IMG/VR virus record: IMGVR_UViG_2660238600_000003
Coordinates: 1 to 4,208 of that record
DNA: 4,208 bases
Reading direction: 5' to 3' (one strand)
Origin: a virus
Taxonomy: Duplodnaviria; Heunggongvirae; Uroviricota; Caudoviricetes
Both the position numbers and the translations under genes were made by a program. Positions 1 to 4,208 of the stretch are shown here, in pieces (within the stretch, counting starts at the first letter, position 1; every line of letters starts with the position of its first letter). Under the pieces are notes generated by a model. The model worked only from the letters and a program-made list of their open reading frames with translations. It was not told the origin of the DNA and searched no databases.

Positions 1-24
1 TCAGAGGCAGAAAACGTTGCTTAA
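1..24 (+). CDS. tnpA: Possible 3' end of the Tn3-family transposase gene (last 7 codons plus TAA stop inside the inverted repeat); partial, runs off the left edge.
   Basis: Frame 1 is open from position 1 (tca gag gca gaa aac gtt gct) to a TAA at 22-24 inside the inverted repeat. Tn3 tnpA is known to terminate within its terminal repeat. The fragment is too short to confirm by protein similarity. Confidence 0.35.
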   Translation, partial: SEAENVA

Positions 25-57
25 CGTGAGTTTTCGTTCCACTGAGCGTCAGACCCC
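1..57 (+). mobile_element. Right-hand terminus of a Tn3-family (Tn1/Tn2/Tn3-like) transposon. The 38-bp terminal inverted repeat is at 20-57; the transposon body lies to the left, outside the window.
   Basis: The reverse complement of 20-57 is GGGGTCTGACGCTCAGTGGAACGAAAACTCACGTTAAG, which matches the Tn3 38-bp terminal inverted repeat as I recall it, with the GGGG outer end at 54-57. The sequence changes character immediately after 57. The inner flank (1-19) differs from the bla-side flank found in pBR322-type vectors, so this looks like the tnpA-side end. Confidence 0.8.
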
Positions 58-1136
58 TAGTACCGAAGGGCTTTCGTCTGGGAAGTGAAGAAGCTCTCGC
101 CGGTGAACACGCAGATCATCTTCTGTATATTATCGATGAAGCCTCCGGTGTCAGTGATAGAGCTTTCGGTATCATCACCGGTGCTCTTACCGGACAGGAT
201 AACCGCATCTTATTGCTGTCACAGCCTACACGCCCAAGCGGCTATTTCTACGATACACACCATAAACTGGCCAAGCGTCCTGGTAACCCAGATGGCGTTT
301 ATACGGCGATCACGCTTAACAGTGAGGAATCACCGCTGGTAACGCCAGAATTTATCAAAATGAAGCTGGCGGAGTACGGCGGGCGTGATAACCCTATGTA
401 CATGATTAAGGTACGCGGCCTATTCCCTAAATCACAGGACGGCTTCCTTCTTGGACGTGATGAGGTTGAACGTGCGACGCGGCGGAAAGTCAAGATTGCC
501 AAAGGATGGGGCTGGCTTGCATGTGTGGACGTTGCTGGTGGTACAGGACGGGATAAGTCCGTTATCAATATCATGATGGTGTCCGGCCAGCGAAATAAAC
601 GCCGTGTAATCAACTATCGAATGCTGGAATACACAGACGTTACAGAAACGCAGCTTGCCGCCAAAATTTTCGCAGAATGTAATCCTGAGCGATTCCCAAA
701 TATCACCATAGCGATAGACGGCGATGGGCTGGGTAAAGCAACGGCGGATCTGATGTACGAGTATTATGGTATTACCGTACAGCGTATACGCTGGGGTAAA
801 AAGATGCATAGCCGTGAAGATAAGAGCCTGTACTTTGATAAGCGTGCTTATGCCAACGTTCAAGCCGCAGAGGCCGTAAAATCTGGTCGTATGAGACTGG
901 ATAAAGGTAATGAAACTATTGAGGAAGCGTCGAAAATCCCTGTAGGGATTAACTCCGCAGGTCAATGGAAGGTGATGAGTAAGGAGGATATGAAGAAAAA
1001 ACTCAATCTGCACTCACCAGACCATTGGGATACATATTGTTTCGCTATGCTGGCGGATTATGTTCCCCAGGACGAAGTGCTTAGCGTCGAAGACGAAGCG
1101 CAGGTTGATGAAGCTCTGGCATGGCTTAATGAATGA
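58..1136 (+). pseudogene. pacB: Terminase large subunit (P1 PacB-like), 5'-truncated at the transposon end. Walker B and the C-terminal RNase-H-like nuclease domain are retained; the Walker A region is missing.
   Basis: The frame of the 213..1136 ORF stays open back to the transposon boundary. The upstream in-frame translation reads ...[42 protein letters not shown], with a Walker B-like LLYIIDEAS at 120-146. Downstream motifs [14 protein letters not shown] (Asp codon 528-530), [11 protein letters not shown] and [14 protein letters not shown] are typical of terminase nuclease domains. No Walker A (P-loop) is present anywhere in the frame. The ORF-track start at 213 is a TTG with no convincing ribosome-binding site. 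The pacB symbol is inferred from the P1-like context, not from sequence memory. Confidence 0.7.
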
Positions 1137-1139
1137 ATA

Positions 1140-1156
1140 CTTGCTCTAATAAATTG
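1140..1156 (+). promoter_or_regulatory. C1 repressor operator (Op51-like), probably overlapping the promoter of the c4-icd-ant operon.
   Basis: CTTGCTCTAATAAATTG matches the asymmetric 17-bp P1 C1 operator consensus ATTGCTCTAATAAATTT at 15/17 positions. It lies 4 nt after the terminase stop and upstream of the c4/icd/ant genes. No clean -35/-10 pair could be assigned. Confidence 0.6.
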
Positions 1157-1287
1157 TGTTTTTTAACTGCCGATGTTACATTGAGCCTGACCTCTTGCGC
1201 CTTGAGGCATTTTCGGTTTATGCTTATCAGGCATCTCAGTAAAACGGGTGCCGGGATTGAGACCCCGGATAATGCAAAAGGCGACAC

Positions 1288-1310
1288 AGACGCCAAAAGC
1301 GTCTTTTTTT
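1288..1310 (+). terminator. Rho-independent terminator, plus-strand orientation.
   Basis: AGACGC (1288-1293), loop CAAAA, GCGTCT (1299-1304), then a run of seven T (1304-1310). On the opposite strand no T-tract follows the stem. Confidence 0.55.
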
Positions 1311-1355
1311 GTGTCATGCCATCGCACAGCCATACGTAGCGTTTAGCTCAGAGAT

Positions 1356-1442
1356 CAATGGTAGTGCTGGCTGGGCTGCCGAAAGGCAGGCCGGTTCCCT
1401 TTTGCGCCGGTAGTCTCAACCCAGTCAGTGCTACCGCCATTG
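1356..1442 (+). ncRNA. c4: c4-like antisense regulatory RNA (candidate; ends approximate).
   Basis: Non-coding stretch directly upstream of icd. A 14-bp interrupted closing stem pairs 1356-1369 with 1426-1442, and an internal GNRA-type hairpin lies at 1371-1390 (CTGCC-GAAA-GGCAG core at 1376-1389). Two segments are complementary to the icd translation initiation region: 1398-1405 CCTTTTGC pairs with 1477-1484 GCAAAAGG (Shine-Dalgarno), and 1356-1364 CAATGGTAG pairs with 1488-1496 CTGCCATTG (reaching the GTG start; one G-U). This matches the known P1 c4 a2/b2 versus a'/b' arrangement. Confidence 0.45.
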
Positions 1443-1495
1443 AGATTGAGACCTCACGCGGTAGCTCCTTAAATTAGCAAAAGGAGGCTGCCATT

Positions 1496-1717
1496 GTGGC
1501 TACTATCCCTACCCCTGCTCATCCTGAATTTATCTGGCGCTTTTACTCCTGCCAAAAACGTCACTATCACTTCGTTATTGCACCGACAGAAGATGAGGCA
1601 CGTTCTCAGCTTCCGGATGCTCCCTGTATTTTCTCTGCCCGCTTTTCTACCGATTCGCGCAATTCTCTCAGTTACTGGTGCCTCCCTGTTAACGCTTCTG
1701 CTCAGGAGGGACTATGA
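1496..1717 (+). CDS. icd: Icd-like small protein (73 aa; interference with cell division), first ORF of the immunity-I operon.
   Basis: GTG start at 1496 preceded by AAGGAGG (1481-1487, 8-nt spacer). The stop at 1715-1717 overlaps the ant1 ATG (ATGA). Size and position (between c4 and ant, overlapping ant1) match P1 icd. No protein-level confirmation was possible. Confidence 0.55.
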   Translation: MATIPTPAHPEFIWRFYSCQKRHYHFVIAPTEDEARSQLPDAPCIFSARFSTDSRNSLSYWCLPVNASAQEGL

Positions 1718-2829
1718 GAACGTCATTAGTCACCCGTGAAGAGATGATCGAGGCAATTGAACAGCACACTGCCTGTATCAGTACCAGGGATATACCGGGC
1801 GTTATTGCCAACTACTTCATGATCACCAAACAACTTTACCGGAGAAAGGACAAACACGCGGTTCACCGCATTCTGCTAACCGATATCCGTGAATACCTGC
1901 TCGAACAGGGTCATCTGAATTACGCAACCGTCGCAGCCGAAGCACGCAAGGAGGCACACAGAATGAAAGCTACTAACGTTAAATCAGAAAAAGTTCATGC
2001 ACCTTCAGTTCAGGAATCAGAGCTGGTGGTTGTTCAAAATCAGTCGGATGAAATTCCCGTTCTGGAGTGGCAGGGAGTGCGTGTCGTAACAACCGAAACT
2101 CTTGCTAAGGGGTATGGTACAGAAGCGATTCGCATTCGCCAGAATCATCATGAGAACAAAGTACGCTTTGTTGAAGCGAAGCACTTTTTCAAGGTTATTG
2201 GCGATGAGCTGAAAAATTTGCGGGTAGCTTTAAACTACTCACAAAATCCAGTCTCCCCCAAAGCGCGCTCTCTCATCCTCTGGACAGAACGAGGAGCTGC
2301 CCGTCACGCTAAAATGCTCGAAACCGATCAGGCATGGGCATTCTTTGAAAAACTGGAAGACAGCTACTTCCGACAAAAAGAACAGCAACCGGTCGCAATC
2401 CCCCAGACGCTTCCAGAAGCTCTGCGCCTGGCTGCCGAGTTAGCTGAACAAAAGCAACTTCTGGAACAGAAAGCCCACCAGCTAAATCAGCAGCTGGTGG
2501 CCGCCGCTTCTAAAGTCGATTTTGCCGACCGGGTATCAGTAGCTAAAGGGATCCTGATTGGGAATTTTGCAAAGGTCGTTGGACTTAAACAAAATGCGCT
2601 GTTTGCCTGGTTACGGGAGAACGGCATTCTGATAGCGTCCGGAGGCCGTAAAAATGTACCGTTCCAGCAGTACATCAACGCGGGGTATTTCACGGTGAAA
2701 GAAGTGGTGCTGGATGATGAAGATGGCTACCAGATACGGTTGACGCCTCAATTAACGGGTAAAGGCCAGCAGTGGTTGACGCGTAAACTGCTCGATGCTG
2801 GCTTGTTAAAACCGGTGGCGGCTGAATAA
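1714..2829 (+). CDS. ant1: Antirepressor Ant1 (371 aa), with a C-terminal region typical of phage antirepressors.
   Basis: ATG at 1714 preceded by AGGAGGG (1704-1710). The 371-aa product (about 42 kDa) contains an in-frame internal start giving a 288-aa product (about 32 kDa), matching the P1 Ant1/Ant2 pair. The C-terminal half (DFADRVSVAKGILIGNFAKVVG...FTVKEVVLDDEDGYQIRLTPQLTGKGQQWL) resembles phage antirepressor KilA-C-type domains, judged by eye. Confidence 0.75.
   Translation: MRTSLVTREEMIEAIEQHTACISTRDIPGVIANYFMITKQLYRRKDKHAVHRILLTDIREYLLEQGHLNYATVAAEARKEAHRMKATNVKSEKVHAPSVQESELVVVQNQSDEIPVLEWQGVRVVTTETLAKGYGTEAIRIRQNHHENKVRFVEAKHFFKVIGDELKNLRVALNYSQNPVSPKARSLILWTERGAARHAKMLETDQAWAFFEKLEDSYFRQKEQQPVAIPQTLPEALRLAAELAEQKQLLEQKAHQLNQQLVAAASKVDFADRVSVAKGILIGNFAKVVGLKQNALFAWLRENGILIASGGRKNVPFQQYINAGYFTVKEVVLDDEDGYQIRLTPQLTGKGQQWLTRKLLDAGLLKPVAAE
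1963..2829 (+). CDS. ant2: Antirepressor Ant2 (288 aa), in-frame internal start within ant1.
   Basis: ATG at 1963 with a strong AAGGAGG Shine-Dalgarno at 1948-1954 (8-nt spacer) inside the ant1 frame. P1 is known to make two Ant proteins from nested in-frame starts. Confidence 0.45.
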   Translation: MKATNVKSEKVHAPSVQESELVVVQNQSDEIPVLEWQGVRVVTTETLAKGYGTEAIRIRQNHHENKVRFVEAKHFFKVIGDELKNLRVALNYSQNPVSPKARSLILWTERGAARHAKMLETDQAWAFFEKLEDSYFRQKEQQPVAIPQTLPEALRLAAELAEQKQLLEQKAHQLNQQLVAAASKVDFADRVSVAKGILIGNFAKVVGLKQNALFAWLRENGILIASGGRKNVPFQQYINAGYFTVKEVVLDDEDGYQIRLTPQLTGKGQQWLTRKLLDAGLLKPVAAE

Positions 2830-2836
2830 TGGAAGA

Positions 2837-2858
2837 ATGCCCGGTTGATGCCGGGCAT
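2837..2858. terminator. Hairpin between convergent ant (plus) and c1 (minus); candidate bidirectional terminator.
   Basis: Perfect 8-bp stem ATGCCCGG / CCGGGCAT with loop TTGATG. It lies 8 nt after the ant stop (2827-2829) and just 3' of the c1 stop on the minus strand (2862-2864). AATTTATT follows on the plus strand; the T-tract is modest on both sides. Confidence 0.45.
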
Positions 2859-2861
2859 AAT

Positions 2862-3713
2862 TTATTGCGCGCTTTCGGGGTTGTCGTTTACTGGCTGCCC
2901 CTTCTTGGTTTTACGGCTGCGCGTAACTGATGCGGCTGACTTAACCTTTTTCTCTTCGCGAGTGATGGCAATTTGTTTTTTTACATTTTCAATATCTGCC
3001 AGGCGATATATTTTTGCTTGCGGCCAGCGGTCGCAGATGATCGGTTCTATGGAGTCATAAAGGCTAAATTTTGCTTTTTCGAATTCACCGTTGATGATAA
3101 TTCCATCACGGAGAGTTTCATCGCAGATAAACACGCCACACAGTGGCACATGGTAACTAACTGATTTACCATCATTGTAGTTAGGGCTACTGGAAATGTA
3201 GTGGACGCGCAGCATTGTTTCGCTAAAGCCGTGTACGCGCATACGGAATTTTTCATCCTCCGGGTACTGCTTCATTAGCTCTTTTGTTGCTTCCAGGTTC
3301 TCTATGTATTTCGCACTGTGCTCATTGATCCCCGCGCTTTTTTGGATGCGAATGTCCTTATCAATCAGATGAATAATGCGGCCAGCGGTCATGTTGACGC
3401 TGTTCACAGCTTCTGTCTGATAAGTTGTAACCTTACGCACACCGCGAAGGATGTTAGGCACTGGATATAAAATAGTCTTTGGGATATTGAGGTCTGGGTA
3501 CTGTTCCAGTTCCCGCGCCATTAAAGTCCATTTATCAATTTCAGCCTGAATGCTGTCAGTTTCTTTGAACGGTAGAACGACAACCGGGCGTACAGGACGA
3601 CCGTCGCTGGCTGTATCAACGTGTTGGGCGCGTGCAACAGCTTTTTTTAGAAAGAGATCCCTGAAGCTGACGAACTCCTGGTACAGTTGTTCGCCGTAGA
3701 CATAATTTATCAT
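2862..3713 (-). CDS. c1: C1-like primary immunity repressor (283 aa).
   Basis: Intact 283-aa ORF with a strong Shine-Dalgarno (GGAGGAGG 4 nt upstream of the ATG on the minus strand). The length equals that of the P1 C1 repressor. C1-operator-like sites occur in the window (1140-1156, 3808-3824), and a 69-aa gene lies immediately upstream on the same strand, as for coi-c1 in P1. Confidence 0.7.
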   Translation of the reverse strand: MINYVYGEQLYQEFVSFRDLFLKKAVARAQHVDTASDGRPVRPVVVLPFKETDSIQAEIDKWTLMARELEQYPDLNIPKTILYPVPNILRGVRKVTTYQTEAVNSVNMTAGRIIHLIDKDIRIQKSAGINEHSAKYIENLEATKELMKQYPEDEKFRMRVHGFSETMLRVHYISSSPNYNDGKSVSYHVPLCGVFICDETLRDGIIINGEFEKAKFSLYDSIEPIICDRWPQAKIYRLADIENVKKQIAITREEKKVKSAASVTRSRKTKKGQPVNDNPESAQ

Positions 3714-3781
3714 TGATCCTCCTCCAGAATTGACATGGTCAATAACGCCCGGCTGAGAAAACCGGTCATTACTGACCTATA

Positions 3782-3824
3782 TTATAGAGGGATCAAACGA
3801 AAATAATAGATTTATTAGTGCATT
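3782..3824 (-). promoter_or_regulatory. Candidate c1-proximal promoter with an overlapping C1 operator-like site (autoregulation).
   Basis: On the minus strand there is a perfect TATAAT (plus coordinates 3782-3787) about 70 nt upstream of the c1 ATG, with a weak -35. The minus-strand site at 3808-3824 (AATGCACTAATAAATCT) matches the C1 operator consensus at 14/17 positions. Confidence 0.3.
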
Positions 3825-4033
3825 TATTGTGAGTCTAACTGGTTAGTTGCCATGAGATATTCGATTGTGTCAGTGAGGTCATCCAGGTCGTCTTGGGTGA
3901 TGCGATACTCCTGATTGGATATCTTTGAGTAGTGTTCAGCAATGGCGCGGGCTGCGTCGGTTTCGGCAGGGTCTACAGATAAAGCGTTAGAGCAATGTCT
4001 AACGTCGTCGATGGTTGGTTGAATGAAAGCCAT
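3824..4033 (-). CDS. coi: Coi-like C1-inactivator protein (69 aa, acidic).
   Basis: 69-aa ORF directly upstream of c1 and co-directional with it. GAGG lies 7 nt upstream of its ATG on the minus strand. Size and position match P1 coi. No sequence-level confirmation was possible. Confidence 0.55.
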   Translation of the reverse strand: MAFIQPTIDDVRHCSNALSVDPAETDAARAIAEHYSKISNQEYRITQDDLDDLTDTIEYLMATNQLDSQ

Positions 4034-4208
4034 AATTATGCCTCACTGTATTGACAACACAGAGCCTGAAGCTCTGACCTACTGTTTCACCCATGATCCA
4101 TGCTGGGGTAATCTAACAACATTGCGCTGTGTGTAAGATGAGCAATGCATAGGGAAGGTGCGAACAAGTTCCTGATATGAGATCATCATATTCATCCGGA
4201 GCGCATCC

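Follow-up and report, generated by a model that had tools for sequence, protein, structure and literature searches.

The canonical ImmI region of phages P1 and P7 is an ordered array of Oc4/Op51, P51a/b, the sites a1 and b1, c4, the sites a2 and b2, icd and ant1/ant2. P1 and P7 are heteroimmune (PMC6906374), and D6 and D6-like plasmids carry two c4/icd regions in one genome (PMC6799933). A further parallel is the isrK-orf45-anrP-isrJ locus of the lambdoid Salmonella prophage Gifsy-1, where a leader small RNA (sRNA) supplied in trans activates translation of the antirepressor (PMC4825925). Here we analyse a stretch of 4,208 nucleotides from the IMG/VR virus record IMGVR_UViG_2660238600_000003 (positions 1 to 4,208, referred to as the window), in which an ImmI-type cassette occupies the gap between pacB, encoding the large terminase subunit, and c1, encoding the primary repressor of lytic functions. 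The arrangement itself is already annotated, published and common: the GenBank record of phage RCS47 (FO818745 / NC_042128) annotates ant between pacB and c1, and an insertion at this point was mentioned by Venturini et al. 2019 (PMC6906374). Our literature search for a functional study of the cassette returned descriptive mentions only.

Results

A probable second ImmI-type module between pacB and c1

The stop codons of pacB (1136) and c1 (2862) are separated in the window by a 1.7-kb cassette where P1 has a 24-bp spacer. Convergent with c1-coi, this cassette comprises, in order, a C1-operator-like site, a leader with a1 and b1, the gene for a C4 antisense RNA, icd and ant1/ant2. Its parts and their order are those of the canonical P1/P7 ImmI and the spacing is near-identical. 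The resemblance to P1 extends to the terminator hairpin after b1, the fold of C4, the placement of a2 and b2 over the icd ribosome-binding site, the ATGA overlap of icd and ant and the Ant2 start. In contrast to the P1/P7 region, the cassette occupies another position, carries other a and b sequences and a c4 whose DNA is unalignable by blastn, and has an ORF6N centre in its Ant protein. The P1 setting, beside sim and followed by Op53-kilA-repL, is not matched, which is a difference of locus and not of mechanism: downstream of ant the cassette has a terminator-like hairpin and then c1, and neither kilA nor repL follows ant in the window. In P1 itself about 44 kb separate c1 from immI (48.1-49.7 kb). 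An earlier note on this DNA, made from the letters alone, had named pacB, operator, c4, icd, ant1/ant2, coi and c1 and drawn this contrast with P1. All of the parts it named were recovered at or near the positions it gave, its gene identities agree with Rfam, Pfam and protein alignments, and both the contrast and the lack of kilA and repL after ant were confirmed.

We consider it probable that the stretch between pacB and c1 forms a second antirepressor module of the ImmI type, complete and self-contained, typical of the RCS47-like branch and present as an added copy. RCS47, JL22 and vB_EcoM-673R5 also hold a canonical c4-icd-ant1/2-kilA-repL region at the usual place, 96-97.5% identical to that of P1. 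Likewise, pE6474.2, an intact IncY plasmid of 98.5 kb with 98.2% identity to the window, carries the cassette together with canonical c4-icd-ant1/2-kilA-repL in the same range of identity to P1. No blastn alignment was obtained between the c4 region of the cassette and P1 c4; this region is 87-95% identical to the second c4-icd-antirepressor module of phage D6. As intact relatives have kept the canonical immI and the cassette c4 is of the D6 type, the cassette is best described as an extra, diverged paralogous module and not as a relocated immI. The earlier note had offered a module shuffle, fusing two immunity regions, as one explanation of the layout, and these same observations contradict it. 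Its other suggestion, a distinct phage-plasmid lineage, held up better, since the layout is that of RCS47, which is listed by the International Committee on Taxonomy of Viruses as the species Punavirus RCS47.

The D6 module lies beside ref (orf84-orf82). In D6 and the D6-like pYU39_89 the C4 and leader are 87-95% identical to those of the cassette and belong to the same a/b class; unlike the cassette, the D6 module sits at a different genomic site and encodes an antirepressor of the Rha/HTH type. Another C4-icd region was found near bof in Ro157c2YLVW, with ant beyond the end of that linear record. C4-icd-ant cassettes thus behave as mobile modules, being found at several positions in P1/D6-type genomes.

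Operator, leader and C4 antisense RNA

All features of the cassette are on the plus strand. At its head, in the position of P1 Oc4 (Op51), is a putative C1 operator identified by sequence match, the 17-mer CTTGCTCTAATAAATTG (1140-1156), which has two mismatches to the consensus ATTGCTCTAATAAATTT. The P1 Oc4 sequence is AATGCTCTAATAAATTT, immediately upstream of the c4 promoters. Scanning the window with the operator consensus gave two hits against 0.01 expected by chance, the other being at 3808-3824.

The leader RNA (1231-1309), related to IsrK and c4-a1b1, was recognized by the Rfam isrK model (RF01394) at 56 bits (gathering score 50). It contains a1 (TTGAGAC, 1257-1263) and b1 (GCAAAAGG, 1274-1281), exact complements of the C4 recognition sequences a' and b', and a terminator scan placed a terminator-like hairpin followed by a T run at 1288-1304. 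The terminated leader sRNA, the short region of open reading frames (ORFs) and the RNA-controlled antirepressor resemble Gifsy-1 isrK-orf45-anrP-isrJ (PMC4825925). That locus, in contrast, was described without the C4/icd framework, and in the cassette the leader is followed by a genuine icd and by an Ant of the P1 type.

The C4 antisense RNA gene (1354-1441) matched Rfam RF01695 over its full length (75 bits; gathering score 45; E = 5e-14), and its predicted minimum-free-energy fold is built like that of P1 C4. The recognition sequence b' (CCTTTTGC, 1398-1405) is in the loop of hairpin 2, and a' (GTCTCAA) is at 1413-1419. Immediately downstream are the targets a2 (TTGAGAC, 1446-1452), complementary to a' at 7/7 positions, and b2 (GCAAAAGG, 1477-1484), complementary to b' at 8/8 positions and overlapping the icd Shine-Dalgarno sequence AAGGAGG (1481-1487). 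The gap between a2 and b2 is 24 nt in the cassette and 22 nt in P1, and the distance from the end of b2 to the icd start codon is 11 nt and 10 nt, respectively.

A 39-aa ORF at 1358-1477 on the plus strand, named 'ash family protein' in RefSeq and matching Pfam Phage_ASH (E = 1.4e-6), was not accepted as a gene because it lies almost wholly on the C4 RNA gene. This 'ash' protein call, and perhaps part of Pfam Phage_ASH too, may represent translated C4-type RNA genes.

Recognition sequences change jointly

From P1 to the cassette the recognition sequences are altered jointly at all sites. The a sites (a1, a2) read TTGACAG in P1 and TTGAGAC in the cassette, and a' reads CTGTCAA and GTCTCAA, respectively. 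Similarly, the b sites (b1, b2) are GTTAGTGC/A in P1 and GCAAAAGG in the cassette, and b' is TCACTAAC in P1 and CCTTTTGC in the cassette. The C4 of the window matches P1 and P7 targets at 3-5 of 7 positions (a) and 2-3 of 8 positions (b). By comparison, P1 C4 on P7 targets, and the reverse, gives 5/7 (a) and 6/8 (b). Crude duplex energies were -29 to -32.5 kcal/mol for cognate and -16 to -27 kcal/mol for non-cognate pairs.

The cassette of RCS47, about 92% identical to that of the window, differs from it, among the recognition sequences, in b only, with b' CCTTTGAC and with GTCAAAGG at both b1 and b2, a three-way compensatory change. When IMG/VR was scanned with a 24-mer of the C4 clade of the window, 70 loci on viral contigs were recovered. 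Their C4 sequences fall into four classes, combining a' GTCTCAA or GTTCCAA with b' CCTTTTGC or CCTTTGAC, and exact cognate a1, b1, a2 and b2 were found in 68-70 of the 70 loci. All four a'/b' classes occur in the pacB context. These sequence comparisons provide strong comparative evidence that RNA-target pairing is under selection. As its a and b sequences are unlike those of P1 and P7, we predict that the cassette escapes control by the canonical immI, and the reverse, where both are present, and that it would bring in a second specificity of heteroimmunity.

About half of the 70 loci are not beside pacB, and in these icd is accompanied by other antirepressor types or by none that was detected. 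The C4-icd front end therefore appears to recombine with different downstream genes.

icd and the antirepressor gene

The icd gene (1496-1717, GTG start) encodes a 73-aa cell-division inhibitor homologue with 81% amino-acid identity to P1 Icd; RefSeq names the product 'host cell division inhibitor Icd-like protein'. The icd stop and the ant start codon overlap (ATGA, 1714-1717). The ant gene (1714-2829) encodes an Ant1-type antirepressor of 371 aa with matches to Pfam ANT/KilAC (E = 1e-30) and ORF6N (E = 3e-19). Aligned end to end with P1 Ant1 it shows 56% identity overall, rising to about 93% over the C-terminal 140 aa; the N-terminal 86 aa are also P1-Ant1-like. An Ant2-type internal start is kept as AAGGAGGCACACAGAATG, with the Shine-Dalgarno sequence at 1948-1954 and ATG at 1963 (together spanning 1948-1965), and would give a predicted Ant2-type product.

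The ORF6N central domain (about 2058-2360) was delimited by Pfam and by the identity profile against RCS47 and JL22. It is the most variable stretch between the cassettes, 70-73% identical to RCS47 and 45-72% to JL22, in contrast to 97-100% for the flanks. Exchange of the ORF6N centre between otherwise near-identical cassettes suggests domain swapping within the antirepressor. As this centre is variable and related to Stx-phage ant/roi, the target range of the cassette Ant may differ from that of P1 Ant1.

In the 32 bp separating the ant and c1 stops, the terminator scan found a terminator-like hairpin with a 9-bp stem (2837-2858; -21.2 kcal/mol, z-score -2.85). Read-through from ant as antisense on c1 was considered and found to be without support, with this hairpin standing between the genes.

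In phage phi456 an IS1 element abuts a truncated cassette that is reduced to the last 333 nt of ant, a stretch annotated 'Ant2' and lying beside c1; pacAB is missing at this site.

The c1-coi side

The P1 ImmC order is kept beyond the cassette, with orthologues of C1 and Coi and an operator between them. On the minus strand, c1 (2862-3713) encodes a 283-aa protein identical to P1 C1.100 at 281/283 positions, and coi (3824-4033), encoding the C1 inactivator, a 69-aa protein with 67/69 positions identical to P1 Coi; the earlier assignment of both proteins was thus correct. It had also called coi and c1 a convergent pair. The pair does converge on ant, but the two genes are themselves in tandem on the minus strand. 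The C1 operator between them (3808-3824, minus strand) is at the Oc1a position, placed as in the P1 annotation, with three mismatches to the consensus. A 31-aa ORF at 3999-4094 on the minus strand corresponds in position and length to imcB of P1 and RCS47, and imcA is cut by an IS5-like element.

Source plasmid and nearest relatives

The window is matched at 100% over all 4208 bases by pF404-1 (NZ_OY754365.1), an Escherichia coli plasmid from a hen in France, and several further plasmids are 99.8-99.9% identical to it. The nearest named phage is RCS47, with 96.3% identity across 58-4208, and JL22 and vB_EcoM-673R5 are collinear with the window as well. RCS47, JL22, vB_EcoM-673R5 and pTZ20_1P share its gene order and insertion point, with flanks 97-100% identical. 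Over pacB the window is 96-98% identical in nucleotides to RCS47 and JL22; the parts it has in common with P1, pacB included, show about 90% nucleotide identity.

In contrast to RCS47, pacB in the plasmid of the window is additionally split by a Tn3-family transposon. According to the pF404-1 annotation, positions 1-57 are the end of this transposon, a carrier of blaTEM-1, inside pacB. Its 38-bp terminal inverted repeat is at 20-57, and the 5-bp target duplication TAGTA (58-62 in the window) is present at both transposon ends in pF404-1. The 3' part of pacB, assigned by sequence identity and annotation, occupies 58-1136 on the plus strand, and the 5' 420 nt sit about 5 kb off, beyond the transposon. 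The resistance gene blaTEM-1 therefore sits within the terminase gene pacB of pF404-1.

At the other end of the window, annotation and junction comparison identify 4153-4208 (plus strand) as the left end of the IS5-like element (ISKpn26/IS5D) in imcA. The junction sequence is that of RCS47, and dmsABC cargo follows downstream in both; the shared junction and cargo indicate that pF404-1 descends from an RCS47-like ancestor.

The packaging genes of pF404-1 are inactivated, as pacA is annotated as frameshifted and pacB is split by the transposon. No head or tail genes are annotated in the plasmid, and insertion sequence (IS) elements and cargo (dms, bcs and an autotransporter) stand in place of phage structural genes. 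The phage in pF404-1 is a defective, decayed remnant and the cassette a still-intact passenger. When pF404-1 was searched for kilA, repL and a further immI, the cassette itself was the sole hit at E = 1e-5. kilA and repL, which the earlier note had proposed to look for elsewhere on the replicon, are therefore both absent from it. We ascribe the lack of a canonical immI to the decay of this remnant, which has lost most of its phage genes.

Prevalence of the insert-bearing form

At least 80% of the window was found in one piece in 258 PLSDB plasmids and in 241 of 5426 complete E. coli genomes. The P1-type adjacency was queried with a synthetic sequence in which the 3' ends of pacB and c1 abut. 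Of 703 PLSDB plasmids matching either half of this query, 317 have the P1-type junction, so the insert-bearing form accounts for about 45% of the PLSDB plasmids with both pacB and c1 (258 versus 317). The earlier note had regarded the arrangement as a departure from the norm of the P1 family. Given this share, and the published descriptions, that view can largely be set aside.

In NZ_CP080123.1 (79544-80961) pacB and c1 are about 420 bp apart, which is neither 24 bp nor 1.7 kb. This gap may be a remnant of a cassette deletion or a different small insert.

Discussion

By analogy with P1 and with Gifsy-1 isrK-orf45-anrP, from which we take C4 processing, the block of icd translation, its polarity on ant and the Ant-C1 interaction, the cassette would operate as follows. 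Transcription would begin behind the putative C1 operator and pass through the leader with its a1 and b1 sites, and C4 RNA would be excised from that transcript. The exposed a' and b' of C4 would pair with a2 and b2 on a like transcript, covering the icd ribosome-binding site. With cognate C4 present, icd and the translationally coupled ant1/ant2 would stay silent. If the cassette were transcribed without enough cognate C4, Icd and Ant would be made, and Ant would inactivate C1, the repressor encoded by the adjacent gene. A shortage of C4 could arise on entering a cell in which the C4 of the resident prophage is of another type, or by titration of C4 by the a1/b1 leader. That Ant would bind and inactivate C1 is predicted from homology, namely the ANT domain and the identity of about 93% at the C-terminus. 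Its sequence suggests a working cassette that is orthogonal to the canonical copy.

Several observations weigh against this reading. Expression of the cassette, processing of its RNA and binding are all predicted. A consensus scan covering 1100-1520 detected no strong sigma-70 promoter in 1137-1230. As the scan gave no convincing promoter upstream of the leader, we place the cassette promoters in 1137-1230 by likeness to P1 P2c4 and P1c4 and claim none as mapped. The Rfam c4-a1b1 model scored the leader at 20.3 bits, below its gathering score of 46.7. As the same leader exceeds the isrK threshold, this result also suggests that IsrK and C4 a1/b1 leaders are one kind of element filed as separate families. 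In pF404-1 few C1-controlled phage genes are left for Ant to derepress. Finally, the central third of the cassette Ant differs from P1 Ant1 in being an ORF6N domain related to Stx-phage ant/roi, and the target of Ant could be other than C1 or reach beyond C1.

This last point leads to the strongest rival, in which Ant is aimed mainly at the repressors of other prophages (lambdoid, Stx) or has another DNA-binding role, and its place beside c1 is incidental, the pacB-c1 gap being a permissive insertion site. Stx-phage ant/roi genes share 70-90% identity with the ORF6N centre and about 600 nt of ant, the centre is swapped among otherwise near-identical cassettes, and D6 and about half of the IMG/VR loci combine the same C4 clade with quite different antirepressors of the Rha/HTH type. 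Gifsy-type antirepressors can act across prophages. It has been reported that the Gifsy antirepressor proteins bind and inactivate the lysogenic repressor (PMC4825925). However, the cassette Ant is P1-Ant1-like over 86 aa at its N-terminus and over 140 aa at its C-terminus (about 93%), the internal Ant2 start is conserved, and the putative C1-type operator at the cassette head links the cassette to the P1 circuit. We therefore regard this explanation as unlikely.

Two further explanations appear far less probable. Relocation, in which the single immI of a P1-like ancestor moved to immC with kilA-repL left behind or lost, would account for one combined cassette, and in pF404-1 the cassette is indeed the sole P1-immI-like sequence and kilA and repL are absent. 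That plasmid is, however, a decayed remnant, with pacA frameshifted, pacB split, immI, kilA and repL gone and no head or tail gene annotated. Its relatives RCS47, JL22, vB_EcoM-673R5 and pE6474.2 carry both the cassette and canonical immI-kilA-repL, and the D6-type c4, unalignable to P1 c4 by blastn, and recognition sequences unlike those of P1 and P7 also speak against it. A relocation is thus very improbable. It is equally hard to credit that the cassette now lacks a function in every host and persists as a relic or as hitch-hiking DNA, as its location in a defective plasmid between two mobile elements might imply. Every ORF is intact, neither frequent frameshifts nor broken a/b pairing was seen in the cassettes examined, and hundreds of plasmids retain the cassette. 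Exact RNA-target complementarity has moreover been kept through compensatory changes over four allelic classes and 70 contigs. An added, complete ImmI-type module accordingly remains the reading we prefer.

What is added here is modest, a refinement of a known system: judged by its sequence, the cassette is an ImmI-type module with all of its parts and with a C4 specificity of its own, which covaries with its targets over four classes. It represents no new type of mechanism, as the P1/P7 C4 principle recurs in a second copy. It does explain the recurrent insertion of 'hypothetical ORFs plus ant' in annotations. Somewhat more speculatively, the pacB-c1 gap of RCS47-like phage-plasmids may be a polymorphic second heteroimmunity locus with at least four C4/target alleles (two a by two b) and a swappable Ant centre, a possibility that we put forward tentatively. 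Such a locus would let elements escape, or add to, the immunity of resident P1/P7-type prophages, and tight linkage to c1 would keep a repressor and its matched antirepressor together amid the frequent recombination of P1-like plasmids.

In E. coli, resistance genes are often carried by P1-like phage-plasmids, and the plasmid of the window, with blaTEM-1 inside pacB, is an example. Whether two such elements coexist, exclude or mutually induce each other depends on their immunity circuits. Recognizing a second, RNA-orthogonal antirepressor module in about 45% of the PLSDB plasmids with pacB and c1 thus helps to predict the outcomes of superinfection and induction.

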